Source: Escherichia virus TH54
Direction: 5' to 3' (one strand)
Sequence record: MT446420.1
DNA length: 64,000 bases
Part shown: one piece after another, positions 1-57,321 of the stretch
Layout of the letters: each line of letters opens with the position of its first letter
Numbering within the stretch: the stretch's first letter is position 1
Notes under the pieces: generated by a model
Databases searched by the model: none
Told to the model about the DNA's origin: nothing
The model's input: only the letters and a program-made list of their open reading frames with translations
Made by a program: the position numbers and the translations under genes

Positions 1-1183
<1,183 letters not shown>

Positions 1184-3220: not shown

Positions 3221-4132
3221 TTAAAGGCCAGCCAGCAGGTCGTCGAGACCATCATCGGAAGGCTCTGGAGTGCTTGGAGCAGTCGCAGTGCGTTCAGACT
3301 TAGCAGGTTTGCTGGAAGCGAAATCTTCCATATCTTTATCAAAATCGTCCAGGTCAGCGCCCAGTTTATCAGCTTGTGCAGCAGCTTTAGAAGCAGCACC
3401 GCCGAGAGCAGCTGTACCCATTACTTTAGAGAATTTCTTCTGATTCTCTTCAAGGGATTTAAATACCAGCAATTCATTCAGGTCAGACATTTCGTCCCAA
3501 AGTTTTTTCTGGAATGCTTCATCATTGATACCAGCGATTTCAGACTGGTTCATGAATTTGGAATCATCGTAGTTTTTATAACCGGAAACCAGTTTAGATT
3601 TCAGTACAAAGTTTGCACCTTCAAAAGGACAAGTTACATCAATAGCTGTTTCGCCCATATCAACATCGACTTCAACCATCTGGTTGATTTTGTCCATGAT
3701 TTTCTTGCCGAAGCGATATTTGAATACTTGACCTTCGTTAGACGGAACAGCAGGGTCTTTAATGACCAGGATGTTAGCCCAGTAAGAAGTATTACGCTTC
3801 AGTTTACGATATTCGGATTCGTTTGTGTTGTACAGGTCATTCTTATTCATGTACGCACACACAGGGCAGTTTTCATAATCGCCGTGGGTAGAAGTACAGT
3901 TTTCAATATACCATTGACCGCCATTTTTAAAGCCGTGGTTAACGAGCTTGATGAACGGAGATGGATTTTCTTCATTCTTGGAAGGCAGGAAACGAATAAC
4001 CGCAGAACCGACGCCATCAGTATCTTTCAGTTTCCATTCTTTTTTATCGTCAGAAGAGAAACCAGAACCACCTTTCAGAGCGTTAAGGGAAGCAGCCAGG
4101 TCAGCAGGGTTTTTACGTTTAAACATAGACAT
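3221..4132 (-). CDS. 32: single-stranded DNA-binding protein gp32
   Basis: MFKRK...AVIRFLPSK...[13 protein letters not shown]...YWANILV...[11 protein letters not shown]...DDLLAGL collinear with T4 gp32. Confidence 0.95.
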
Positions 4133-4192
4133 ATGATTTTCCTTAGATTATTTGATTTTTAGCAGTTGTTTTGATTACGTATTAATTATACT

Positions 4193-4861
4193 TCAAAGTG
4201 CTTGAAGCGTTATTTGACAGTTTTTAACGGTCTCGATGAACAATTTACGAGCTTCAAGAGAATCGATATTTAAGATTTTCTTATAGGCATTTAGTTTGGT
4301 TGAATACTTTTCCCAAACCAAGTCGTTAGTCTGTTCATCATGTTTATTTATAATATCTAAAAATGAATCAAGCAAACAAAACGTTTCAAATGAGATAACA
4401 TTCGATTGGAGAAGTTTGAAAATATAACTTGTGTTTACTTTAGTATTATACTCGAAAATCTCTTGAAGCGATTTGACTTCGACTTTCTTACTGAAGTAAT
4501 AGATATTCTTTATATCATCTTCGTATACTTGTTTAATTCTTTTAAGTCTGCCAATGTATTCACGATAAAATATCAGAGCATCGGCATCGCTTATATCACC
4601 TATCCATGCATCCTGGTTCGCGACCAGGTTTGACATGAATATTAACGTTAATTCTTTGAGAGTGTACTTATCGCTAAGCTTTTCGAAAAAATACTTATCG
4701 CGACGTTTTTGATAAGCACTATCGGAGATTCGCATGGTCCAGTTATATTTGATAATATCATAACGACCCGAAAAATGCTGTTTGATGGATAAGTACAGTT
4801 GGTATACTGATTTACCATTTATATATCGGTTGTTATTTGGAGGCATGCGAATCGTAATCAT
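4193..4861 (-). CDS. 59: helicase loader gp59
   Basis: MITIRMPPNNNRYINGKSVYQLYL...YFFEKLS...NLVANQDAWIGDISDADALIFYREYIGRLK matches T4 gp59. Confidence 0.95.
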   Translation of the reverse strand: MITIRMPPNNNRYINGKSVYQLYLSIKQHFSGRYDIIKYNWTMRISDSAYQKRRDKYFFEKLSDKYTLKELTLIFMSNLVANQDAWIGDISDADALIFYREYIGRLKRIKQVYEDDIKNIYYFSKKVEVKSLQEIFEYNTKVNTSYIFKLLQSNVISFETFCLLDSFLDIINKHDEQTNDLVWEKYSTKLNAYKKILNIDSLEARKLFIETVKNCQITLQAL

Positions 4862-17442: not shown

Positions 17443-17607
17443 TTATTCCTCTGGGTTGTACACATGATTTTCCATCTGTACAACATATTCCTGATACATC
17501 TGTTCAACTGGTTCCTGAAACTTAAAATCTGCTCCAAGGAATTCACCAAAGCAATCATGCTCGCGTGCACGCTGACCAGTGATGGTGTTCTCTAAGTTAT
17601 GACTCAT
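17443..17607 (-). CDS. hypothetical small protein (54 aa)
   Basis: Hand-translated MSHNLENTITGQRAREHDCFGEF...; below track size cutoff; ATGA overlap with arn stop. Confidence 0.3.
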   Translation of the reverse strand: MSHNLENTITGQRAREHDCFGEFLGADFKFQEPVEQMYQEYVVQMENHVYNPEE

Positions 17608-17894
17608 AGTGATTCCTCGATGTAATCTTCTAAACCAAAATCATCAATTTCTTCTTGAATTTCTCTTAATACTTGTTCTTCATCTAGACCAGGACCAAAA
17701 ATCACTTTAGCGTAGCCGGGTCGTTCACTAGAGAATCGAATTGTATATTCCGGTTGAATATAGCCAAAGCTGCTATCCAAATCACAAAGAATTTCTGCAT
17801 AGATTTCGGCTGGAACTGAAGCACTGATTTTAAAAAGCTCATCAATAAGAATAACCAATTCAGTTGCTTGATATGTATGGAGTTTAGTAATCAT
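17604..17894 (-). CDS. arn: putative anti-restriction nuclease inhibitor Arn
   Basis: 96 aa, acidic C-terminus ...EDYIEESL, sits upstream of asiA as T4 arn does; identity from position and composition only. Confidence 0.45.
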   Translation of the reverse strand: MITKLHTYQATELVILIDELFKISASVPAEIYAEILCDLDSSFGYIQPEYTIRFSSERPGYAKVIFGPGLDEEQVLREIQEEIDDFGLEDYIEESL

Positions 17895-24501: not shown

Positions 24502-25095
24502 TCAGCTTGTAAACCGGTGATAGGGAAATTTTTCTTCTGAACAAGAACGGAGGTACCAGCCATCCCCTTGTGACTTCTGCACAAGACCAGACTCAGGAAC
24601 AAAAGCCCCAGGCCCAGCAAGGAATTTTGGTTTAAATCTATAACCTTTGATAGTCTCTTTTACATTAAACATAATCATAAGGTCAGCAAGCTTGTGTTGC
24701 ATAAAAGGACCAAGATTAATCCCGTAACCATGTGGATAATCGCCATGACTACCAGTATGCACGGATATCCATTTGGAACCAGACTGGTGGGTCTTGACTT
24801 CGATTCTTACCCCTTCCTTCGAAACTACATCAAATGCAAAGGAATAGGGATTATCGTAATCTTCATCACCGCCGCATAAAAAGCCGGAGGTCCATTTAGC
24901 AATAGCTTGTTCTGCCATTGTAGCCACCATACATCTTTGCATGACTTGCTCACGGTCTTGACCTGGGTCTTTACGCAATGAATACCTGGCTGTGTCTACA
25001 ATCTTTTGCAGGGATTCAGGGGTTAAATCTTCTTTTGTATAAAGAAAGGAGGGCATCTTTTTCAGATGCTCCCATGTTTTACTCTTCTGAATCAT
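24502..25095 (-). CDS. hypothetical protein (denB-equivalent position, identity not established)
   Basis: 197-aa ORF between ndd cluster and rIIB. Confidence 0.4.
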   Translation of the reverse strand: MIQKSKTWEHLKKMPSFLYTKEDLTPESLQKIVDTARYSLRKDPGQDREQVMQRCMVATMAEQAIAKWTSGFLCGGDEDYDNPYSFAFDVVSKEGVRIEVKTHQSGSKWISVHTGSHGDYPHGYGINLGPFMQHKLADLMIMFNVKETIKGYRFKPKFLAGPGAFVPESGLVQKSQGDGWYLRSCSEEKFPYHRFTS

Positions 25096-25351: not shown

Positions 25352-25561
25352 TTATTCACCAAAATAAGAGATACGAATTGCCAGTACATGAGCATAAGCG
25401 CTCATTGCATCTAACTGGGCATTCAAAAGACCTTGCTGACGAGCATCGAGAGTTTCAAAAACTCCACCCTTAATAAACTCTTCAAGAGCATTAATTTTCA
25501 AAACCAGCTGGTCATATTCTTCAACTACACGTGCTTGGAAACCTAACATTTCTTTAGACAT
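25352..25561 (-). CDS. hypothetical protein
   Basis: 69-aa ORF. Confidence 0.35.
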   Translation of the reverse strand: MSKEMLGFQARVVEEYDQLVLKINALEEFIKGGVFETLDARQQGLLNAQLDAMSAYAHVLAIRISYFGE

Positions 25562-26045
25562 TGTGTTCTTCCATATATTTTAATCGAGCTTCATTTGCTT
25601 CTTCTGGAGTTGCAAAAGCTCCGACTTGAATTTGTTTTTTATTTCGCATAATAGTGGCTCGCCATGGTTTATTCAAAGCTCGTTTATCAAACGAGACTCC
25701 TTTAAATCCAGACTTGTTGTTATTATACGGGCGCTTATTTAAAGCATTCTCGCCTGGACTAACCCATCTGCAGTTATCGGGAGAGTACCCTTTATCGTTA
25801 TCTGTTCGGTCAAGTTGATGTTTGTCAGTGGGTCGTGGCCCCATATCTGTATAAAATCTTTCAAAATCATGCAGCCATTCATCGCAAACAGTGATACCCC
25901 GACCGCCATATCGAGAATAACTAATATGTGTTGGATTGCAACACCGAGCTTTCATGCCAATCCATACAATGTATTCAGGCGTGTGACCTAGCCCGTGGAC
26001 AATACCACGAGCCGAGCCATCTTTAGCAATTGTTTGTTTAATCAT
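25554..26045 (-). CDS. putative HNH homing endonuclease with C-terminal AP2-like DNA-binding domain
   Basis: 163 aa; HQLDRTDNDKGYSPDNCRWVSPGENALN (H-N-N pattern) plus GFKGVSFDKRA..KPWRATI...VGAFATPEEANEARLKY (AP2-like); ATG lies inside the rIIB stop region. Confidence 0.55.
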   Translation of the reverse strand: MIKQTIAKDGSARGIVHGLGHTPEYIVWIGMKARCCNPTHISYSRYGGRGITVCDEWLHDFERFYTDMGPRPTDKHQLDRTDNDKGYSPDNCRWVSPGENALNKRPYNNNKSGFKGVSFDKRALNKPWRATIMRNKKQIQVGAFATPEEANEARLKYMEEHNV

Positions 26046-48720: not shown

Positions 48721-49888
48721 GGTCTTCCATCATATCTAAATCGTTTTCGATATCTGCTGCAGATGGTTTTGCCTTACCTTCAGGAGCAGAGTATTTTTCA
48801 ACCTTGGAGGCAATAAGCGCATCAACTTCGGCATCAACAACAGCATTGCTATCAATTGCACCCAGCTGGTAATGACGTTTGATTGCGTCACGGAAAGGTT
48901 CGTGCTTGAACAACGGACCCCAGAATTCAGTACAGTTAGTATCTTTTGCACGCCATGATTTTTCTTCGCGGACCATTTCACCGGTCTCAACATCAAGATA
49001 TTCACGGTTATACCAACCAACTTTCGGTTTCACTACAAATCCGATTTCCATTGCCATATCAAGCAGGCCAGAATATGGGTCAATACCACCATCGAATTTT
49101 ACATCAATGAAGAATTTACTTTTCTCTTTGACCATACGAGATTTTTCGGCATTCAGAACAAATTGGAAACCTTCAAGTTCTTTACCAGTTTCTTTAATCT
49201 GGCGTTTGCCGATAATGAATACGGTGTCCGCAGAATACATAACACCTGTACCACCGGTCATAACGGTTTTGCTATACATCTCAATCGTCTCGATTGTATG
49301 GTTAACCGCGACACAAGGAATATCCTTGATACTAAAATATGGGGTAACAATACGGAACAGAGATTTCAGGGATTTAGCACGAGTCATATCGCCAACGACT
49401 TTTTCGTTCATCGCATCTTCTGTTTCTTTTTTTGACGCCATGTTACCGATTGAGTCAATAAAGATAATGACTTTTTCACCACGCTCAATTGCTTCAAGCT
49501 GGTTAACCATATCAACTTTCAATTGTTCAACCGACTGGATTGGTGTGTGGATAACACGCTCCGGGTCTACTTTCATTGCACGCAGATAGGCTTCTGTGAT
49601 ACCAAATTCTGAATCATAGAACAAACAGATTGCTTCGGGGTATTTGTTCATATATGCAGAGACCATCGTTAAACCCATATTGGATTTAAAGTGTTTTGAC
49701 GGACCAGCAAAAATAGTCAAACCTGACTGCATACCACCATCTAGTGCACCGCTGATTGCAATGTTCAGCATCGGGATTTTTGTACGAACTACATCTTTAT
49801 CATTAAAAAACTTGGACTTAGTAAGAGTCGCAGTCATTTTGGATGTAGAAGCTTTAATCAAACGGGATTTCAAATCTGCAATAGACAT
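48710..49888 (-). CDS. uvsX: UvsX recombinase (RecA-like)
   Basis: MS..DLKSRLIKASTSK.TA.LT.SKFFN.KDVVRTKIPM.NIA.SG... collinear with T4 UvsX. Confidence 0.95.
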   Translation of the reverse strand: MSIADLKSRLIKASTSKMTATLTKSKFFNDKDVVRTKIPMLNIAISGALDGGMQSGLTIFAGPSKHFKSNMGLTMVSAYMNKYPEAICLFYDSEFGITEAYLRAMKVDPERVIHTPIQSVEQLKVDMVNQLEAIERGEKVIIFIDSIGNMASKKETEDAMNEKVVGDMTRAKSLKSLFRIVTPYFSIKDIPCVAVNHTIETIEMYSKTVMTGGTGVMYSADTVFIIGKRQIKETGKELEGFQFVLNAEKSRMVKEKSKFFIDVKFDGGIDPYSGLLDMAMEIGFVVKPKVGWYNREYLDVETGEMVREEKSWRAKDTNCTEFWGPLFKHEPFRDAIKRHYQLGAIDSNAVVDAEVDALIASKVEKYSAPEGKAKPSAADIENDLDMMEDLDE

Positions 49889-49973
49889 TCATTTTTTCCA
49901 TAGGCACCATTATATTTTTCTCACAGGTTTAAGATAGGATAATTATATCACTGTATTTTTAGAGCAATTAATG

Positions 49974-50477
49974 TTAGTTAATACCTTGGCGGGCTTTCTC
50001 TTTAGCCACACATTTATTAATATAGCTCAGACGATTTTGAGCAGACCGCTGATACATATCGCGATACTCATTGGCTTTTGGAGAACCCGTCTCCGCTGCC
50101 TGATAAGCTTCCGCGCGTATGATGTTTATCTGCATATTGATGTATGACATGCAGACCTGTGAAATCTGGTTAACAGTATCCAAGTCATTTTGTCGCTTAG
50201 TTTCTGCTTCCAGCTTGGCAATGATTTCGTCATGCTTTGCAGCTTGCTCGCGTTTGTACTCAATTTCTTGTTGAGCATATTTTGCGCAGTTGTTTCCACA
50301 TTGATTGTTGTCGCGTTTGTAGATAAGTCCAGTACCACCTTTGAAATCAAAGGAACCATTATGCACCTGACGGTCTGCAGCAATTCGCGCTTTACCAATT
50401 TCACTGACATTAACTACATCGCCCTGGTAAGCACAACCAGATAGCAGCATAACAGCTGCGATAGCTAACTTTTTCAT
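49974..50477 (-). CDS. putative lipoprotein
   Basis: Track ORF 49974..50504; ATG 50477 (GAGGAA SD) gives MKKLAIAAVMLLSGC lipobox; occupies the T4 beta-gt/42 position. Confidence 0.5.
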   Translation of the reverse strand: MKKLAIAAVMLLSGCAYQGDVVNVSEIGKARIAADRQVHNGSFDFKGGTGLIYKRDNNQCGNNCAKYAQQEIEYKREQAAKHDEIIAKLEAETKRQNDLDTVNQISQVCMSYINMQINIIRAEAYQAAETGSPKANEYRDMYQRSAQNRLSYINKCVAKEKARQGIN

Positions 50478-50627
50478 TGTATTTTCCTCAATTAAAACAT
50501 TCATAGCGAGCTTGGAGCCCCAAAAATACCCAACCCAAAATTAAAGTTGGAATCATATGCGGAGTCATTATTGCCCAATAGATTGACATACTAAAAAATG
50601 CAATCAGTATAATAATTGTAATTATCT

Positions 50628-50870
50628 TCATTTGGTTTCCTTGATGATAATTACTTGTGCGTTTGATTTACGCTCAGCAACGAGTGCCCAGATAAATGCA
50701 ATAAACCATCCGACCATTGTCCAACCTAACAGGAGGTTAACAAAGAAGATTCCGCAATTACTTTTGGTTCCTCGCAGTAGTGCGATAATCCACGGCAGAA
50801 AATATGCCAGTGCAGCCAGGAAGAAAGAGCCAGCACCCAGAACAACAGTACCCGCAATTAATGTTTCCAT
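50628..50870 (-). CDS. small two-helix membrane protein (Imm position; Pmp3/YqaE-like)
   Basis: 80 aa; ...FLPWIIALLRG....GIFFVNLLLGWTMVGWFIAFIWALV; positional match to T4 imm. Confidence 0.45.
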   Translation of the reverse strand: METLIAGTVVLGAGSFFLAALAYFLPWIIALLRGTKSNCGIFFVNLLLGWTMVGWFIAFIWALVAERKSNAQVIIIKETK

Positions 50871-50939
50871 TTTAATATCCTTAAGTTATTCATCAGTTGA
50901 TGGAGTAATCATACGGCAGTCCTTTGCCGTTGTAAACAC

Positions 50940-53654
50940 TTAAAAGTCAAACATATCAAAAAGAGATGCTTTTTTCTCGTAATCAACCTTAGCTGCTTCA
51001 GAGAACCCTGTCAATGGCTTAACAAAAGTCTTCTGGAACAGTGTGTTGTAGTCCATCCACTGCAAGACTTGGTCACGAATTTCAATCGGGAGTTCAATCC
51101 CTGATGGCCACGCAATCACGGTTTCGCCAAACGGGTTACCAACTTTAAGAGGAAGCACATACACCTTTTCCCCTTCCATGATTTGTGGAACAGTCTTCAG
51201 CCCTTTGGTTGCACGCATGTAAGCAAGCACGCCTTTGATATGAGCCGGACACTTAAATCCAGGGAAACCACCCTCATTATATTTCTGGATGTTGTTAACC
51301 GATGATACACCTGCGATGGTCATGTAATTAAGCTCATTAAATTCCTTGTTGAATTCCTTGAAGTACGTCTGCAGAGATTCTTCACCTTCTTGCAACATAC
51401 GGCGGATACATTCTTTCAGAGCTTTCTGACATGCTTTTGGTGTGCTCGACTTTTGAGTTTCCAGACCCATGATTTTCAGTTTCGGAACAGCATATCGTGT
51501 GCCTTCCATATCGTACACGTTCAGAGCATAACGCTTCTTCGCCGTCCAGAATCCACCAACACCTTTAGAACCAAGTGGAGGACATGCAATCGCTTCACGG
51601 TCCATAAACATAAGGTGCTGTTTGTTGTTCATGTATTCAGCTAGTTCACGGAAAGCTTTATCGATTGCCGGTTCCAAACGGTCTTTCGCGAACTTGTCCA
51701 TGAAGTCAACCAGGTGGTTTGTATCGCGGAATTTAGATTCGCCACCAACCTTTTTAATCAGGTTATCGCACTGGATATAAATGGAGTCAGTATCGCCATA
51801 GAATACATATGTTTCACCACTTGTACCACAAACACTATCAAAATATTCGTTAACTTTACGCTCAATCCACTGCAATGCAAGTTGCCCGAAAGATGTAATC
51901 GCGGTTGCATTTCGCAGGTCAAAGTAACGGAACCAGATATTACCCAGAGCACCATAACAACTGTTGATAAGCAGTTTACGGTTAATCTGTGCGGTCATGC
52001 CTGCGACTTCTTCCATCTGCGCTTTGTACAACATACCATTCAGAACTGTTTGATTCAGACCGTGCAAGGTTGTTTTCATATTGTCATCGAAGTCATAACG
52101 ATAATCAACTTCAGGCTCGGTTGTACCAGTTCCTGGATTACGCAGGGCTTCCTTAATCAGTTCACCATTACGTTGAGCCGCAAGCATATAACCTTTGTGC
52201 TCTTTACGCTGATTAAACACCTTGGTGACTTCTGTTGGAATAATACCCGCAACATCTTTAAAATACATCATACCGTTTGGAGCACAACTAAATGTATCAG
52301 ATGGACGGTCAGCAGTTCCTGCAATGTATTCATACATCGGCGCTGGTGCAAATGACCCGGCAATCGTTTCTGGACTGATGTTAATCTGTCGGATGATGCT
52401 CGGATACAGAGATGTTAAGTCACAGCTCATAACGTATTTGTATGCGTTCGGAATAGGTTCCTTAACAAATGCACCTGGGAACGATTGACGAACATGCGAT
52501 TTGGTTTCCGGAATGACTTTGTTTTGAGTCTTCAGGCTGTTAAAGATAATCGCATCCCAAGTTTTGATTGGGCTGAATACAGACTGAATCTGCATTTTTG
52601 CGTAATAACCCATTGACTGGCTAAGGTTAATAAACTGGCGCTTACGGTCAATCTGTACAACACGATAAACATCGATGATGTTATAAGAAATATACCGTTG
52701 GTGATTTGATTCACGCAGTTTAGAAATCGGACCATCATATGGGAGTTTACCAACACCCAGCTCAGATTCCGCAACATAATCCAACGAATAAGATGGCTGG
52801 TTTGTGAAGCTGAACTTTTTATACAGGTCCAGATAATCCAGAACAGAGATACCCAGAATCTGAATGATTTCTTGTTCTTCACCGAATCCGTTGTTAATGA
52901 CCTTAACTTTTGTACGACGATGTGGACTCAGACGTTTTGCTGTAGCTTCACCAAACACATTTTTAAGGCGGTTGTAGATATATGGAATATCAAACTTCTC
53001 GATGTTCCAACCAGTTAACATAACCGGAGTTTTCTCGTTCCAGAATACCAAATACTGCTGGAGCATTTCTTCTTCTGAATCGAAAGCCATATAAACAATT
53101 TTTTCCAGGATTTCTTCAGGGACTTCATCGCCGCCATCTTCTTGCAGCTTAGCAGCAATATCGATAGACCATTGCTCCACAGTGGCGTATGGTGAGCTCA
53201 AAAGGTCAAAGACATAGAATTTATCGTCTACCGAATCATAGTGCGTCAGGGCATCAATAGGGTGACGTGCTTCAGACGGCTCAGGGAACCCATCAGGAGA
53301 TGTCACCTCGATATCGAAGTTAGCCACACGGATTTTACTTGAATCGTATTTGATTTCGTGCGGGTAACGGTCGGACAAGTATGCGAGTTTAAAGTCATCC
53401 ATACCCATAGCTTCGAGACCCATGTCATTCATTCGCTTCATCCACTGGGATGCATCACGCATGGAGTCGAATTCTTTTTTCACACAACCTTTATTATAGA
53501 TGTCTGTATACTTTGCAGCCTGGTCTTCGCGGGCATGCATAAACAAGCATGGAGCATAAGGGATTTCACGAACACGTTCATGACCGTTCTTGTCAATGTA
53601 TCGTTCGAGTAGATTGTCACCGATTTGTTCGATAGTTAAATAAAATTCTTGCAT
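50940..53654 (-). CDS. 43: DNA polymerase gp43 (family B)
   Basis: 904 aa; exo motifs FDIEV, polymerase motifs DLTSLYPSII, YGDTDS; by recall the N-terminus looks closer to RB69 gp43 than to T4 gp43. Confidence 0.97.
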   Translation of the reverse strand: MQEFYLTIEQIGDNLLERYIDKNGHERVREIPYAPCLFMHAREDQAAKYTDIYNKGCVKKEFDSMRDASQWMKRMNDMGLEAMGMDDFKLAYLSDRYPHEIKYDSSKIRVANFDIEVTSPDGFPEPSEARHPIDALTHYDSVDDKFYVFDLLSSPYATVEQWSIDIAAKLQEDGGDEVPEEILEKIVYMAFDSEEEMLQQYLVFWNEKTPVMLTGWNIEKFDIPYIYNRLKNVFGEATAKRLSPHRRTKVKVINNGFGEEQEIIQILGISVLDYLDLYKKFSFTNQPSYSLDYVAESELGVGKLPYDGPISKLRESNHQRYISYNIIDVYRVVQIDRKRQFINLSQSMGYYAKMQIQSVFSPIKTWDAIIFNSLKTQNKVIPETKSHVRQSFPGAFVKEPIPNAYKYVMSCDLTSLYPSIIRQINISPETIAGSFAPAPMYEYIAGTADRPSDTFSCAPNGMMYFKDVAGIIPTEVTKVFNQRKEHKGYMLAAQRNGELIKEALRNPGTGTTEPEVDYRYDFDDNMKTTLHGLNQTVLNGMLYKAQMEEVAGMTAQINRKLLINSCYGALGNIWFRYFDLRNATAITSFGQLALQWIERKVNEYFDSVCGTSGETYVFYGDTDSIYIQCDNLIKKVGGESKFRDTNHLVDFMDKFAKDRLEPAIDKAFRELAEYMNNKQHLMFMDREAIACPPLGSKGVGGFWTAKKRYALNVYDMEGTRYAVPKLKIMGLETQKSSTPKACQKALKECIRRMLQEGEESLQTYFKEFNKEFNELNYMTIAGVSSVNNIQKYNEGGFPGFKCPAHIKGVLAYMRATKGLKTVPQIMEGEKVYVLPLKVGNPFGETVIAWPSGIELPIEIRDQVLQWMDYNTLFQKTFVKPLTGFSEAAKVDYEKKASLFDMFDF

Positions 53655-53668
53655 TTGGTTTCCTTTAT

Positions 53669-53684
53669 AGTCGAGTGATTGACT
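53669..53684 (-). promoter_or_regulatory. hairpin next to the gene 43 SD (candidate gp43 translational operator)
   Basis: Minus-strand AGTC-AATCACTC-GACT (4-bp stem, 8-nt loop) followed by ATAAAGGAAACCAAATG. Confidence 0.4.
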
Positions 53685-53713
53685 TTTGTTTTATGACTTG
53701 ATGTTATTATACT

Positions 53714-53733
53714 ACAAAAGGGACCGAAGTCCC
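53714..53733 (-). terminator. hairpin/terminator upstream of gene 43
   Basis: Minus-strand GGGAC-TTCG-GTCCC then TTTTG. Confidence 0.5.
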
Positions 53734-53739
53734 TTTGCT

Positions 53740-53967
53740 TTAAATTTCTATTGTACGCCGTTCGATGGTTGGATTACCCTTTTCATCTTTAGTTCTAACC
53801 ATAGCCTGGAAGGCTCTCTGTCCAGGATGCAATAATTTATTGAGTTCCTTTTGAAATTCTATTTGAAGTTCTTCGGAAAGGTCAAAAATAGTTTGAGTTG
53901 GGGAAAGTCCATATATTTCTTTAAGGCGTTCGCATGTTTCAATTTCATGCTTCATATCAATTACCAA
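53740..53967 (-). CDS. hypothetical protein
   Basis: 75-aa ORF between regA and 43. Confidence 0.35.
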   Translation of the reverse strand: MVIDMKHEIETCERLKEIYGLSPTQTIFDLSEELQIEFQKELNKLLHPGQRAFQAMVRTKDEKGNPTIERRTIEI

Positions 53968-54325
53968 TTGTATATTTGGCTACGAGCTTCCAGTCGTCTT
54001 TTTGTTTAAAGGAGATAACACGGAAGTTGTTTGTTACTGCGAACAATTCATTATGCTCTTCTTCTTTGATAGTGATTAAGCCCCAGTCTTCGAGCAGTTG
54101 AGCAATGGAATCACGGCGCTGATAGTCTTCACCATCAATATCTACCTGGCGACCATCCATACGCAGCATTTCTTTGAAGTGAACAATATAGTAACGACCT
54201 TGCTTCTGGAGGATGTGGCAGCTCTGGTACAGCACACGGTCTTTATTATTTGCGATGCCCATACGGGTCAGAGTTTCTTTAACTTTCAGGAAGTCTTCAG
54301 GTTGCTTTAATGTAATTTCAATCAT
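53957..54325 (-). CDS. regA: translational repressor RegA
   Basis: 122 aa; MIEITLK.PEDFLKVKETLTRMGIANNKD.VLYQSCHILQK.G.YYIVHFKEMLRMDGRQV near-identical to T4 RegA. Confidence 0.95.
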   Translation of the reverse strand: MIEITLKQPEDFLKVKETLTRMGIANNKDRVLYQSCHILQKQGRYYIVHFKEMLRMDGRQVDIDGEDYQRRDSIAQLLEDWGLITIKEEEHNELFAVTNNFRVISFKQKDDWKLVAKYTIGN

Positions 54326-54326
54326 T

Positions 54327-54905
54327 TTACCATTCCAATATTTGTTTTTTAATTTCTTTTTGTTCTTTCACATTACTGGTAACGGTCTTTAAGAATTCAT
54401 CCGTTACCAGACCTTTTGTCTTTTTCAAAACATCTTTAAGACTACCTTTGACTTTCAATGTTTCCATATACATCAAAGCATCATCTGCATTAATTGTATA
54501 ATATTTCATTAAAAGCTTTAACACAAGCTGGACGTTGACCGCATCCGGCTCAGCCTTTGCCCATTTGCCATAACGCTTGCCTTGTGGAACTGCATGCAGC
54601 AAATAATTATAATGCTGTTGGTCTGTTAACCCGGAACCGATTAAGTTCATCACATTTACCTGCATGATACAATCGACATGTTGGCTCAATGCGTTTTCCA
54701 ACCAGAATTTATTGTAGTTTTCCGATTGAATCAAGTTCCGTGGTTTTTTGCTAACGGTTATGTCATTAAGAATCGCGAACAATTCATTTTCTGCTTTCTC
54801 TTTGTATGAATCGGACAATTCCTGAATTTTGTTAAAGTCGCGTGATTTCCACGCGACCTCATGTTCGTTTAATTGAACGTCATCATCAAAGAGACTTACA
54901 GCCAT
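54327..54905 (-). CDS. 62: clamp loader small subunit gp62
   Basis: 192 aa; QLNEH.VAW.S.D...ENALSQ......MNLIGSGL.D...NYL..AVP.GKRYGKWAK as T4 gp62. Confidence 0.85.
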   Translation of the reverse strand: MAVSLFDDDVQLNEHEVAWKSRDFNKIQELSDSYKEKAENELFAILNDITVSKKPRNLIQSENYNKFWLENALSQHVDCIMQVNVMNLIGSGLTDQQHYNYLLHAVPQGKRYGKWAKAEPDAVNVQLVLKLLMKYYTINADDALMYMETLKVKGSLKDVLKKTKGLVTDEFLKTVTSNVKEQKEIKKQILEW

Positions 54906-55855
54906 TTCATTTCCCCAGCCAGTTGAGCAAACAGATAAGTCAAGTGAACTTCGGTATTGGCTGCAATACCATGGTACTGATTATTCTCGCCCACAATCTC
55001 ATACATACGGATGATGCTTGCACCAGTCAGTTTGCCGTACATTTCATCAGCCAGCTTTGCAATGAAGTTTGAATAATCATTTGCATGTTTAGGAGCCAGG
55101 CCACGAAGAATTTTAAAGTTACGGTCCTTAAGGGCATCAATCACATCATCAATTGGCGTGCGATTGTTTGTCACGATGCTTAGAATACCGGAATCGATAA
55201 CACCCTTTGCAGAGTAACGGTCAAGCTCATTAATTGTCTTACGCAGGTCCGGGAAGTTATGCTTAACCAGAGCAGCAACAACTTTCAGGTCTTCGATTTC
55301 AACGCCTTCGTTTTTACATATCGCGACTGCACGATGAATCATCTCTTTCATCATAGTAGTCTGGTCAGCTGGAGTTGCTTCACCAAACTTAATTACGCGA
55401 CAACGAGACTGCAACGGAGTGATGATGCCATCGATATTGTTCGCGGTCATAATGATTGAACAGTTGCTCGAATAAGCTTCCATAAAGCTACGAAGGTGTC
55501 GTTGTGATTCAGCCAGCCCCGCACGGTCAAACTCATCGATAACGATTACCTTACGGCGCCCTTCGATTGATTTAGATGATGCAAAGCGAGTCAATTCATT
55601 ACGCACAAAGTCAATTCGGCAATCGGAGCCGTTAACAAACAGCATATCAGAATTCGTATCCGCGCACATAGCTTTCGCAACTGTTGTCTTACCAGTACCA
55701 GGTGAAGAACTGACCAGAATCAAGTTAGGAATCAAACCTTTTTTAACAATCGCCTCTAATGTTTCTTTATCATGAGCAGGGAGAATACACTCTGATAATG
55801 TACCTGGGCGGTATTTTTGTTCCCACATGAATTCTTTGTCATTAACCGTTAACAT
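54896..55855 (-). CDS. 44: clamp loader large subunit gp44 (AAA+)
   Basis: 319 aa; EQKYRP.T..ECILPA.DKET......KG.IP...L.S.SPGTGKTTVAKA as T4 gp44. Confidence 0.95.
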   Translation of the reverse strand: MLTVNDKEFMWEQKYRPGTLSECILPAHDKETLEAIVKKGLIPNLILVSSSPGTGKTTVAKAMCADTNSDMLFVNGSDCRIDFVRNELTRFASSKSIEGRRKVIVIDEFDRAGLAESQRHLRSFMEAYSSNCSIIMTANNIDGIITPLQSRCRVIKFGEATPADQTTMMKEMIHRAVAICKNEGVEIEDLKVVAALVKHNFPDLRKTINELDRYSAKGVIDSGILSIVTNNRTPIDDVIDALKDRNFKILRGLAPKHANDYSNFIAKLADEMYGKLTGASIIRMYEIVGENNQYHGIAANTEVHLTYLFAQLAGEMKWL

Positions 55856-55890
55856 ATATTTTCCTCATATTAGTTTCTACTTTGTACTCC

Positions 55891-55908
55891 ATGGGGCCGA
55901 AGCCCCAT
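55891..55908 (-). terminator. RNA hairpin between 45 and 44 (weak terminator or processing structure)
   Basis: Minus-strand ATGGGGC-TTCG-GCCCCAT, no strong T-run. Confidence 0.4.
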
Positions 55909-55911
55909 TTA

Positions 55912-56607
55912 TTAATCTTGGAATTCGTGGCTAGAGCCTTGTTCCATTGCAATCACATAGCTTGCTTGCGTGCCTTCAAACTTCGTAGCAAATTTATCAT
56001 CTTTCGCCCAAAGCATAACACGGTAATCAGCCGGAATCATTTTCATGTTCAGTTTGTTAATGATAAATTTAAACGCTGCATCGCCTTCGTAGTCGCCACA
56101 TACCAGGGAATACAATGGACGCGCTAACTCTTTATCTTCGAGCTGATTATAACCATGGATAACAATCTTACCGTCTTTGTTGGTGATTGCAAAAGTATCC
56201 AGAGACAAACCACCAGCCACACGCAGAAGCTGCTGCAGGTCACTGCCTTTCAGGTCGAAAATAACCTTAGCTACCGGGAAAGGAATCTTCTTAGCAGGGA
56301 ACACGATAGTGCTCGGGTCTGCTGCAGGCCAGTGAATCGTTGAACGTTGGTCTTTGATAATGATGTTTGATGCATCTTCAGCCAGAGATACTTCAGCTTG
56401 GTCAGTTACCAGGCCCAGGATACTTAAGAAGCCGTTCAGGTCATAAATTGCAGCTTCAAAGTCAATTGTATCATTGATTTCGGCTTCGCCATATGACGCT
56501 CCAGTTACGGAACGAGTCAGGATAGTATTACCTGGTTTAAGCATAATGCCAGAGTAAATGGAAGTGAAGTTTTTCAGAACTGCGATAGTGTCTTTAGAGA
56601 ATTTCAT
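55912..56607 (-). CDS. 45: sliding clamp gp45
   Basis: 231 aa; MKFSKDT.A.LKNF..I.SGIMLK.G......V.G..Y.EA.I.D.IDF..AIYDLNGFL.IL.LV collinear with T4 gp45. Confidence 0.95.
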   Translation of the reverse strand: MKFSKDTIAVLKNFTSIYSGIMLKPGNTILTRSVTGASYGEAEINDTIDFEAAIYDLNGFLSILGLVTDQAEVSLAEDASNIIIKDQRSTIHWPAADPSTIVFPAKKIPFPVAKVIFDLKGSDLQQLLRVAGGLSLDTFAITNKDGKIVIHGYNQLEDKELARPLYSLVCGDYEGDAAFKFIINKLNMKMIPADYRVMLWAKDDKFATKFEGTQASYVIAMEQGSSHEFQD

Positions 56608-56637
56608 TTAATTACCTTTTATTCAAATCAAAATTAA

Positions 56638-57069
56638 TTAAGCAACAACTGCCATTTGTTTGCGGATAGCTTCCGGAAGAGATTCAATATACTCTGGAAG
56701 TTGTGCAGCAATAATAGAACCAGCTTGCACCAGATGGTCGTCAGAGTTAACGCAATAATCATCTTCAAGACGTTCGGAACCGTCACGGTCGATAACCAGT
56801 TTAGCACCAGCAGCCAGTGAATCGTTGTAGTGATTACGCATCAGTTCAATCCACTTATCAGATACATCAGTATCAATCACACCGTACAGCATGAATTTAA
56901 TTTCTTGCGGCAGAGACTGCAGACGGGTAGCAGATGCTTCATCACAGGCCAGAACCCAGGATTTGCGCACACGGTTTTGGTTATGCGGGTTAGCGTCAGT
57001 GCGGATGGTTTTAACTTGGATATCTTTAGCAGTTACGTTGTTCATAATATTCTCTCTATTCATTATCAA
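56638..57069 (-). CDS. rpbA: RNA polymerase-binding protein RpbA (positional)
   Basis: 143-aa ORF between 45 and 46. Confidence 0.5.
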   Translation of the reverse strand: MIMNRENIMNNVTAKDIQVKTIRTDANPHNQNRVRKSWVLACDEASATRLQSLPQEIKFMLYGVIDTDVSDKWIELMRNHYNDSLAAGAKLVIDRDGSERLEDDYCVNSDDHLVQAGSIIAAQLPEYIESLPEAIRKQMAVVA

Positions 57070-57321
57070 TTAATCAAAGTATTCATATGCGAACCAGGCA
57101 TTGTGTCTGTTCGCGATTATTTTAACATATTCTTCACCGAAAGCGTTTTGCAAGTCACGTTCAGTGACAAGGTGCTCATCTTTCGAAAAGGTATTAACTA
57201 ACACATACCGTTTAATTTCAGGGACAGCCAGTAAATGCTGCCCGGTTAAGAAGTCAGCCATAATAGCCTCTATTATAACATCCTTGTTTAAAGCATTATT
57301 CCATAACGGTGAATCGACCAA
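57070..57321 (-). CDS. hypothetical protein (45.2 position)
   Basis: 83-aa ORF. Confidence 0.35.
   Translation of the reverse strand: MVDSPLWNNALNKDVIIEAIMADFLTGQHLLAVPEIKRYVLVNTFSKDEHLVTERDLQNAFGEEYVKIIANRHNAWFAYEYFD

Follow-up and report, generated by a model that had tools for sequence, protein, structure and literature searches.

The stretch of DNA analysed here (the window) comprises 64,000 nucleotides from Escherichia virus TH54 (sequence record MT446420.1), a T4-like phage of the genus Gaprivervirus, of the SP18/VR7/TH57 type (96-98% identical). The genes of the interval from uvsX to gene 43, all of which lie on the minus strand, are as follows.

48710-49888, minus strand: uvsX recombinase, 79% identical to T4 UvsX and 72% to JS98 UvsX
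49889-49973, minus strand: intergenic region of 85 bp upstream of uvsX, the place where the cassette described below is missing; alignable with the DNA that immediately precedes uvsX in JS98
49974-50480, minus strand: 168-aa lipoprotein, homolog of JS98 gp043; lipobox LSGC; phrog_1754 at 9e-47
50488-50631, minus strand: 47-aa hydrophobic ORF (membrane peptide), homolog of JS98 gp044 and RB69 ORF054c
50628-50870, minus strand: imm, superinfection immunity membrane protein of 80 aa, 68% identical to JS98 Imm and 52% to T4 Imm
50940-53654, minus strand: gene 43, DNA polymerase, 78% identical to JS98 gp43 and 60% to T4 gp43

The sequence-only reading held that neither beta-gt nor gene 42 lies between uvsX and 43, and that a 168-aa lipoprotein and an 80-aa membrane protein are found there. 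Both statements were borne out, the 80-aa protein being Imm and the 47-aa ORF being additional. The T4 gene order given in that reading was also right, both for this interval (uvsX, segA, b-gt, 42, imm, imm.1, 43) and for a second one (47, 47.1, a-gt, mobB, a-gt.2 to a-gt.5, 55), where the window carries the following features.

59434-60480, minus strand: gene 47, recombination endonuclease subunit
60651-61654, minus strand: a-gt.2, a-gt.3, a-gt.4 and a-gt.5 (57, 66, 103 and 83 aa), named after their counterparts in the SP18 record
61620-62177, minus strand: gene 55, late sigma factor

As had been stated, alpha-gt is missing between 47 and 55, where only ORFs of 103 aa or less (a-gt.2 to a-gt.5) are present.

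The lipoprotein ORF extends over 49974-50504, and its second ATG (50480) is likely the true start, giving a product of 168 aa which begins MKKLAIAAVMLLSGC. No Pfam domain was matched in this protein, and it is not a DNA-modification enzyme. It was found in 114 phage records, with a constant neighbourhood wherever this was checked, and at an identity of at least 95% the lipoprotein occurs in 31 phage records.

In JS98 and VR5, members of the sister genus Dhakavirus, five genes (gp038 to gp042), which resemble RB69 gp47, gp48, gp45, gp51 and gp52/53, separate uvsX from the gene for this lipoprotein. The flanks of this gap align between the window and JS98, the flanking lipoprotein, small ORF and imm of Dhakavirus are common to the window, and the RB69-type five-gene cassette is cleanly absent here at the locus where Dhakavirus has it. 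Because this is a fixed gene-content difference of the whole genus (31 records), the absence is neither chance nor an assembly artefact. The RB69/Dhakavirus system occupies the same genomic slot, from uvsX to 43, and the DNA modification of RB69 is now known to be arabinosyl-5-hydroxycytosine and not arabinosyl-hmC (PMC13326640), which corrects the earlier statement that RB69 arabinosylates hmC. Related genera keep what appears to have been lost here, namely gene 42 and beta-gt in T4 and the five-gene arabinosyl-5-hydroxycytosine set in Dhakavirus and RB69; the proteins left in this interval of Gaprivervirus are all membrane proteins.

The modification genes were also sought away from this locus, as the sequence-only reading had suggested that they could be kept elsewhere or that the phage could use an RB69-type modification. 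When three T4 proteins (gp42, alpha-gt and beta-gt) and five RB69 proteins (gp3, gp45, gp46, gp47 and gp48) were searched by tblastn against the whole window, no match had an E-value below 0.14. For T4 gp42, the dCMP hydroxymethylase, the best window match was E = 0.61 (tblastn), for the alpha- and beta-glucosyltransferases no window match was better than E = 1.3, and none of the three was found in the complete SP18 genome. RB69 gp3, gp45, gp46, gp47, gp50-53 and gp55 and JS98 gp038 and gp040-042 had no matches in the window or the complete SP18 genome. Of the RB69/Dhakavirus enzymes, neither the window nor SP18 has the flavin-dependent 5-hydroxy-dCMP synthase, which is recognised by D169N, either of the two arabinosyltransferases, the kinase, the phosphatase, the NTP-transferase/kinase or the isomerase, and the genes for activation of the sugar are likewise missing. 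In the search for a homolog of RB69 gp48/JS98 gp039, td alone was matched (E = 3e-4), and td keeps Asp169 and has no Asn at that position. Neither option was upheld, and even though the nearest genus, Dhakavirus, carries the RB69-type cassette at this very locus, we regard RB69-type arabinosylation, or gene 42 and glucosyltransferases elsewhere in the genome, as extremely improbable; for SP18 both are refuted by the whole-genome search. A glycosyltransferase appears to be absent throughout the genome.

Several genes that discriminate against cytosine-containing DNA, or that may be associated with its modification, are retained.

41774-42289, minus strand: gene 56, dCTPase/dUTPase, 68.6% identical to T4 gp56 and 86% to JS98 gp56; phrog_173, PF08761; dN/dS 0.13
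24502-25095, minus strand: denB, endonuclease IV, 47% identical to T4 DenB over residues 9-183 of 185; dN/dS 0.08 in comparison to SP18
17604-17894, minus strand: Arn-like ORF of 96 aa at the arn position; phrog_8202 at 1.5e-39, phrog_3151 at 7e-6

T4 DenB cuts single-stranded DNA which contains cytosine. Within the genus, dN/dS was 0.04-0.13 for denB, gp56 and td, indicating purifying selection, and SP18 encodes both Alc and DenA at full length. The sequence-only reading took the presence of gp56, which is confirmed, as an indication that cytosine is still excluded from the DNA. The exclusion probably holds, with denB and alc intact, but gp56 alone is a weak argument for it, because T4 relatives with unmodified DNA also carry gp56: almost every T4 relative has it, even phages of the RB49 type, whose cytosine is ordinary, while the presence of denB and alc follows that of gene 42 (Petrov 2010). 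The RB49/Krischvirus trait, in which denB and alc are gone along with gene 42, was not found, both genes being intact here or in SP18. These observations bear on the possibility that cytosine is unmodified in this DNA, the pathway for its modification having been lost, gp56 kept as a dUTPase, and the specificity of denB, alc and denA changed or tolerated. Such a reading agrees with the occurrence of gp56 in unmodified relatives and with the lack of a recognisable dedicated modification gene in the window and SP18, but the intact state of denB and alc, which elsewhere co-occur with gene 42, and the purifying selection on denB argue against it, and it leaves a fixed Asn-to-Asp change at an otherwise invariant thymidylate synthase (TS) position unexplained. 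We consider it improbable.

This change lies in Td, whose gene overlaps frd at the left edge of the window.

2-382, minus strand: td, N-terminal 127 codons, running off the left edge of the window
379-975, minus strand: frd, dihydrofolate reductase (DHFR), overlapping td; 64% identical to T4 and JS98 Frd

DHFR is the partner needed by a TS-family enzyme that methylates and produces dihydrofolate. The sequence-only reading left out td itself as a possible cytosine-modifying enzyme. The Td fragment (residues 1-127) is identical to TH57 Td at 127/127 positions and to SP18 Td at 126/127. With residues numbered as in E. coli ThyA, Gaprivervirus Td has Asp at the position of Asn177: the motif GLPFDIGSY was found in Td of SP18, VR7, TH57, ECML-359 and vB_YenM_P8 and in all four Gaprivervirus-type protein clusters (P0001-P0004), in comparison to GLPFNIAS in 114 of 120 related Td proteins. 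For TH54 itself, Asp177 is predicted from the complete N-terminal identity to TH57, the codon lying about 150 bp to the left of the window. The substitution has become fixed in nature, in a clade that comprises about 32 phage records, together with 20 other lineage-specific substitutions, and Td forms a long branch in the genus, being 64-69% identical to Dhakavirus and Tequatrovirus Td, while those two are 80% identical to each other. SP18 Td matched T4 TS (1TIS) at 6e-128, with R21, R126, R127, C146, R166 and S167 conserved; Leu143 and Asp169 are kept in Gaprivervirus Td, and apart from Asp177 the other catalytic residues are those of canonical TS. Asp177 also occurs in the dCMP methylase of Xp12, in T4 gp42 and in RB69 gp48. 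Since Gaprivervirus Td retains His147, Gln165 and Phe176, positions which are changed in the natural dCMP enzymes Xp12 TS and gp42, it resembles the engineered N177D mutants, and it may still act on dUMP or have both activities.

In earlier work, N177D was found to confer dCMP preference and a 5mdCMP product (PMC8670742), and Leu143 was associated with a methyl instead of a hydroxymethyl product and D169N with 5-hydroxy-dCMP synthases (PMC13326640). Under these published rules, the combination of Asp177, Leu143 and Asp169 is likely the signature of a dCMP methylase, although the methyl-product rule is not universal because Xp12 TS itself has Asn at position 143. The same residues bear on whether Td(Asp177) is instead a dCMP hydroxymethylase, in which case the DNA would contain unglycosylated 5-hydroxymethylcytosine, like that of T4 alpha-gt/beta-gt mutants. 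Asp177 is common to gp42, no glycosyltransferase was found in the window or SP18, and the Arn-like ORF would make sense against McrBC, all of which fit such a product. However, the retained Leu143 has a published link to water exclusion and a methyl product, hydroxymethylcytosine synthases having Asp or Glu at this position, and the overlap of td with frd is as expected for a dihydrofolate-producing methylase. The hydroxymethyl product is therefore regarded as unlikely.

EcoRII and SalI are both blocked by C5 methylation. These two enzymes and Csp6I, with and without T4 beta-glucosyltransferase, were used in the assay of VR7 DNA by Gordeeva et al. (PMC6326788). According to that paper, this DNA "has modified cytosines" but no glycosylation and is entered apart from the hydroxymethylated T4147, while the cassette-bearing VR5 is glycosylated. 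The modified cytosines speak against ordinary cytosine, and the lack of glycosylation against RB69-type arabinosylation or glucosyltransferases elsewhere. The same paper shows that BREX restricts VR7 fully, like the unmodified VpaE1, as ordinary cytosine would predict, and to the same degree as the hmC-containing T4147, as unglycosylated hydroxymethylcytosine would predict; on the other hand, with T4 beta-glucosyltransferase in use, T4147 was named "hydroxymethylated" and VR7 merely "modified". This 2018 paper describes VR7 DNA as modified without saying how. Two comparative-genomics papers (2021, 2025) describe the Gapriverviruses as having no known base-modifying enzyme while keeping the nucleases and the transcription blocker directed at cytosine DNA, and in both an "unknown protein" and an "unknown base" are put forward. 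Because the nature of the base was left open, one of these two papers gives no advice on therapeutic use.

Consistent with that proposal, another cytosine derivative could be made by an unrecognised enzyme among the small hypothetical ORFs, Asp177 in Td being incidental, and for about a dozen window ORFs of 75-125 aa, comparison with parts of JS98, T4 and RB69 gave no homolog. All lineage-specific ORFs are small, however, homologs of the two largest (141-147 aa) are among the proteins of another phage that are listed with mass-spectrometry data, and no enzyme domains were found; nor were methyltransferase, glycosyltransferase or dioxygenase domains found in the 20 largest hypothetical proteins of SP18. 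The explanation through Td requires no new gene, and an unrecognised enzyme seems doubtful to about the same extent as the hydroxymethyl product.

We consider it reasonably probable that Gaprivervirus has lost the whole uvsX-43 cassette and that cytosine is still replaced, most likely by 5-methylcytosine (5mC) through Td(Asp177). td is the only TS-family gene in SP18, according to the whole-genome search and the annotation, and the supporting enzymes are present, frd and gp56 in the window and cd and gene 1 in SP18. In the proposed pathway, gp56 would convert dCTP to dCMP, Td(Asp177), with Leu143 and Asp169 kept, would convert dCMP to 5-methyl-dCMP, and Frd would recycle the dihydrofolate produced by Td; gp1 and host kinases would then raise 5-methyl-dCMP to 5-methyl-dCTP, the substrate for the polymerase. 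The dTMP may be supplied by deamination of 5-methyl-dC nucleotides by Cd and/or by host ThyA. DenA, DenB and Alc would still be selective against cytosine DNA, with DenB and Alc presumably sparing 5mC DNA. From the cassette absence, the Asp177 signature and the gene content, we infer 5mC as the most likely identity of the base. McrBC and Mrr of E. coli K-12 should attack fully 5mC DNA, which, with an Arn-like ORF that is not universal, counts against 5mC. That ORF is an accessory gene, lacking in SP18 and not present in all members; its match to phrog_3151 ("inhibitor of MrcBC restriction") spans profile positions 9-86 of 87, and it is a possible McrBC inhibitor.

It is somewhat likelier than even, in our estimate, that these would be the first T4-like coliphages in the open-access literature with all cytosine replaced by 5mC, a natural Asn177Asp change having made a dCMP methylase of their own Td once the cassette was lost, with dTMP from deaminated 5-methyl-dC nucleotides or the host. 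If true, this would answer the question left open in the literature on the Gaprivervirus base. If confirmed, a T4-type phage would have exchanged a bulky sugar for a mark as small as a methyl group through a single changed residue of a housekeeping enzyme, the sensitivity profile of the genus towards BREX, McrBC, Mrr, MspJI-type and GmrSD-type systems and CRISPR would become predictable, and an E. coli phage with fully 5mC DNA would be available as a standard for sequencing and enzymology beside Xp12.

In comparison to the T4 glucosyl-hmC system, gp56, gp1, Cd, Td/Frd, DenA, DenB, Alc and Ndd are present and the gene order around the locus is the same, while gp42, alpha-gt, beta-gt and dam are absent here. 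The same single substitution in an otherwise canonical site makes dCMP methylases of the engineered E. coli ThyA N177D and L. casei TS N229D, but in contrast to these laboratory mutants the Gaprivervirus change is natural and clade-fixed. In Xp12 and PaMx74, all cytosine is replaced by 5mC via one TS homolog, a deaminase supplying dT, and T4 gp1 together with such TS homologs put 5mdC into E. coli DNA (bioRxiv 10.1101/2024.12.05.627091). Xp12 carries a TS, dCMP deaminase and DHFR module, and Gaprivervirus likewise has a single TS-family gene with Asp177, accompanied by a DHFR and by a deaminase of the dCMP family; in both, a second thymidylate synthase is lacking. Xp12 is, however, an unrelated siphovirus whose enzyme is about 32% identical and is also changed at positions 142, 143, 147, 165 and 176, whereas the putative methylase of Gaprivervirus is an ordinary T4-type Td save for Asp177 and a few neighbouring changes, set in a T4 background with gp56, DenA, DenB and Alc.

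Megablast of window positions 46000-58000 retrieved 31 phage genomes at 93-98% identity and at least 80% query coverage, all of the SP18/VR7/VR20/TH57/ECML-359 type. SP18 and VR7 are classified in the Tevenvirinae, genus Gaprivervirus, and the collinearity of SP18 with the window extends from inside td, past the ends of the SP18 record at rIIB/rIIA, as far as the region of gene 55. The features from uvsX to gene 43 are as follows:

48710-49888, minus strand, uvsX
85 bp beside uvsX, spacer
49974-50504, minus strand, lipoprotein ORF
50488-50631, minus strand, 47-aa ORF
50628-50870, minus strand, imm
50940-53654, minus strand, gene 43

The results showed that the uvsX-43 interval consists of the spacer, the lipoprotein, the 47-aa ORF and imm, and the absence of beta-gt and gene 42 noticed by the sequence-only reading, whose T4 gene order is correct, was thus confirmed. 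The same is true of alpha-gt between genes 47 and 55, where all ORFs are 103 aa or less and carry the names a-gt.2 to a-gt.5 in the SP18 record. The 168-aa lipoprotein it had called was also borne out: the second ATG of ORF 49974-50504 is preceded by GAGGAAAA, and a start there gives a 168-aa protein with the N-terminus MKKLAIAAVMLLSGC, which has a lipoprotein signal with a lipobox. Its sole profile match was phrog_1754 (9e-47), a PHROG without known function, and no Pfam family was matched. Conservation of the protein is at least 95% in 31 phage records, and falls to about 50% in Dhakavirus and about 30% in several other genera.

In JS98 and VR5 of Dhakavirus, the genus closest to Gaprivervirus, the order is uvsX, gp038, gp039, gp040, gp041, gp042, gp043, gp044, imm and 43. 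JS98 gp038 to gp042 are homologous to RB69 gp47, gp48, gp45, gp51 and gp52/53, which serve as arabinosyltransferase 1, 5-hydroxy-dCMP synthase, nucleotide kinase, phosphatase and NTP-transferase/kinase, respectively (PMC13326640), while gp043 and gp044 correspond to the lipoprotein and the 47-aa ORF of the window. The 85-bp spacer of the window aligns with the sequence that lies immediately upstream of uvsX in JS98 and adjoins the lipoprotein stop codon, so that Gaprivervirus cleanly lacks about 4.3 kb, comprising precisely the modification genes. Since T4, RB69 and Dhakavirus all retain a thymidylate synthase (TS) family gene in this slot, loss of the cassette in Gaprivervirus would be the simpler history. 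An IMG/VR scan with the lipoprotein found three close relatives only and no intermediate form with a partial cassette. The region around uvsX is also mosaic: UvsX (48710-49888) is 79% identical to T4 and 72% to JS98, unlike the nearby gp41, gp43 and gp56, which are closer to JS98 than to T4, and gp56 (41774-42289) is 69% identical to T4 in comparison to 80% for VR26 gp56. These identities suggest recombination breakpoints near the missing cassette.

The sequence-only reading had offered two explanations, namely that the modification genes are kept elsewhere or that the phage uses an RB69-type modification, which it took to be arabinosylated hmC; the RB69 base is in fact arabinosyl-5-hydroxycytosine (PMC13326640). 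In the window, tblastn of T4 gp42, alpha-gt and beta-gt and of RB69 gp3 and gp45-48 found nothing (best E = 0.14). The complete SP18 genome was then put together from five pieces, and 30 proteins (T4 gp42, alpha-gt, beta-gt, dam and imm.1, the full RB69 cassette, and JS98 gp038 to gp044) served as tblastn queries on this assembly, on the window and on three relatives from IMG/VR. In SP18 there was no homolog except a weak match of RB69 gp48 to td (E = 3e-4), and td was likewise all that the search for hidden cassette homologs returned over the whole set of targets. Both explanations are thus contradicted, and there is hardly any chance that either holds; overall, the sequence-only interpretation was partly right. 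The SP18 annotation has td as its single TS-family gene and lists no DNA methyltransferase or glycosyltransferase gene. A lineage-specific modifying enzyme was also considered and rejected. All window ORFs of at least 60 aa were run against 137 kb of JS98, 69 kb of T4 and 45 kb of RB69; those left without a match were 75-163 aa and were assigned by PHROGs and Pfam to an HNH-AP2 homing endonuclease, an Arn-like protein, a Soc-related fragment and function-unknown proteins, and none of 20 large hypothetical proteins of SP18 has a methyltransferase, glycosyltransferase or dioxygenase domain. Two comparative papers came to the same conclusion of a genus without known modification genes, so the bare observation is already in print and its explanation is not published.

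Exclusion of cytosine from the DNA had been argued from the dCTPase gp56. The argument is weak because Petrov et al. record gene 56 for nearly every T4 relative, phages with ordinary cytosine among them, while the exclusion itself is probable on other evidence, namely intact denB, alc and denA and the modified DNA of VR7. Window denB shares 47% identity with T4 DenB across almost the entire protein, SP18 Alc is full length (167 aa, 55% to T4 Alc), SP18 DenA is 72% identical to T4 DenA, and dN/dS within the genus is 0.08 for denB, 0.13 for gene 56 and 0.04-0.13 for td. The split 'alca/alcb' annotation of SP18 suggested decay, and a pseudogene was rejected: alca is the full-length Alc, and the 77-aa ORF preceding it (alcb), which resembles only the N-terminal third of Alc, is an extra partial paralog (both at NC_014595 138071-138821). 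Since denB and alc are present, and their distribution was the same as that of gene 42 in the survey by Petrov et al., plain cytosine as in RB49 is very unlikely.

Gordeeva et al. describe digests of VR7 DNA with Eco32I, MboI, EcoRII, SalI and Csp6I, with and without T4 beta-glucosyltransferase, EcoRII being blocked by Dcm methylation and SalI by CpG methylation; they conclude that VR5 and T4 DNA is glycosylated, that T4147 DNA is hydroxymethylated and that 'VR7 has modified cytosines', and their main text gives VR7 DNA as unglycosylated (PMC6326788). This is consistent with the cassette content of each phage, present in VR5 and absent in VR7. Unglycosylated hmC is judged improbable as the base of the genus. 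Restriction-site avoidance was discarded as an indicator that the DNA is unprotected. Six-base palindromes showed no marked depletion (observed/expected 0.93 in SP18 versus 0.94-1.00 in JS98, T4 and RB69), and GATC alone stands out and does not discriminate because it is depleted in SP18, JS98, T4 and RB69 alike. GATC occurs zero times in window 1-64000 (232 +/- 14 expected from dinucleotide-preserving shuffles), 5 times in 170 kb of SP18 (two within tRNA genes), 15 times in 74 kb of JS98, 23 times in 45 kb of RB69 and 76 times in 69 kb of T4; SP18, JS98 and RB69 have no dam in the interval from gene 56 to gene 61.

SP18 Td, the thymidylate synthase encoded by td, was aligned with E. coli ThyA, JS98 Td, T4 gp42, RB69 gp48 and JS98 gp039, and was found to carry Asp in place of ThyA Asn177 (GLPFDIGSY versus GLPFNIASY). 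Among 120 close relatives from a database search, all four Gaprivervirus-type clusters (one of 73 member sequences, the other three 86-87% identical and including Yersinia phage vB_YenM_P8) have Asp at 177, while Asn is found in 114 further proteins, which come from Tequatrovirus, Dhakavirus and other T4-like phages. Asp was also found in one more metagenomic T4-like contig (Logan SRR24146912, 5.4 kb, frd.2-frd-td context), whose Td (3953-4831, GLPFDIAS) shares only 67% identity with SP18 Td, and the switch may have more than one origin in T4-like lineages. T4 relatives described in the literature as having no gene 42 homolog include Acinetobacter phages 133 and ZZ1 and Morganella phage MP1. 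Td read from the genomes of VR7, TH57, ECML-359 and vB_YenM_P8 has Asp in all cases; the window, whose left edge falls about 150 bp short of the Asp codon, holds the N-terminal 127 residues, identical to TH57. About 32 phage records have a Gaprivervirus-type Td, with the next-best relatives at 70% identity or less.

Among the catalytic positions checked, Gaprivervirus Td differs from canonical TS only at 177, and agrees at R21, E58, W80, Y94, R126, R127, A142, L143, C146, H147, Q165, R166, S167, D169, G173, F176, H207 and Y209. The Xp12 enzyme, T4 gp42 and RB69 gp48 have Asp177 as well, and the nearest solved structure, T4 thymidylate synthase 1TIS (6e-128), aligns with no gaps around the motif. 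Gaprivervirus Td lies on a long branch, because its identity to the Td of Dhakavirus and Tequatrovirus is 64-69%, compared with 80% between the latter two, in contrast to gp43 and gp41, for which Gaprivervirus is clearly nearest Dhakavirus; 21 lineage-specific changes are fixed, including N177D, A179G and A182G. A greater divergence of td than of its neighbour frd was dropped as an argument, since Frd is likewise only 64% identical to JS98 Frd. The bulky Leu143 is thought to keep water out and so to give a methyl rather than a hydroxymethyl product, and 5-hydroxy-dCMP synthases are marked by Asn at 169 (PMC13326640), so that Asp177 together with Leu143 and Asp169 predicts a dCMP methylase. The enzyme could be inefficient or bifunctional, because it retains His147, Gln165 and Phe176, which are altered in natural dCMP enzymes.

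Replacement of all cytosine by 5mC through one such TS homolog is known in Xp12 and PaMx74, and T4 gp1 is promiscuous enough to bring 5mdCMP into E. coli DNA (bioRxiv 10.1101/2024.12.05.627091). In the proposed pathway, gp56, Td(Asp177), gp1 and the polymerase would act in that order, with dTMP supplied by Cd and/or host ThyA. It requires no unknown gene and fits the reported restriction behaviour of VR7. Besides td, whose overlap with frd is seen in the window, Gaprivervirus has gene 1, gene 56 and a cd gene (product 86.5% identical to T4 Cd). The pathway would presuppose that Alc and DenB tolerate 5mC DNA and that such DNA is protected from McrBC and Mrr. The locus lacks the defining enzymes of both the T4 glucosyl-hmC and the RB69 arabinosyl-5-hydroxycytosine systems, and denB and alc set the genus apart from the unmodified RB49 type, while at the sequence level Gaprivervirus resembles the Xp12-type dCMP-methylase route. 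In Xp12 the TS homolog adjoins a dCMP deaminase and DHFR. Unlike the Xp12 enzyme, the putative methylase is an orthologous T4-type Td altered at its specificity residue and sits in a T4-type cytosine-exclusion network. On these residues and gene contents, we consider 5mC the probable base of Gaprivervirus; a base of another, unrecognised kind seems a poor prospect given the domain searches. Literature searches found no identified base for the genus, and no open-access paper tied 5mC to it or to any T4 relative; 5mC would be a specific and cheaply testable answer to a standing question.

Several other ORFs were observed. A 96-aa Arn-like ORF (17604-17894, minus strand) occupies the place of arn; it gave a match to phrog_8202 (1.5e-39) and a weak one to phrog_3151 (7e-6), the Arn 'inhibitor of McrBC' family. 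SP18 does not have it, about 12 phage records have it with at least 80% identity (TH57, IME341), and about 165 Mosigvirus-type records have it at about 31% (RB69ORF259c). A 163-aa HNH/AP2-type homing endonuclease ORF (25554-26045, minus strand) is inserted between denB.1 and rIIB, with no counterpart at this position in SP18, JS98 or T4. Between soc and gene 56 lies a 93-aa ORF (41490-41771, minus strand), missing from SP18, whose first 48 residues match the 'virion structural protein' PHROG phrog_5782 (3.7e-15). In SP18, two adjacent ORFs of 125 and 170 aa (NC_014595 44914-45818) match the C-terminal and N-terminal halves of Pfam DUF7235 and correspond to the single 297-aa gp086 of JS98, reflecting either a split gene or an SP18 sequencing error.
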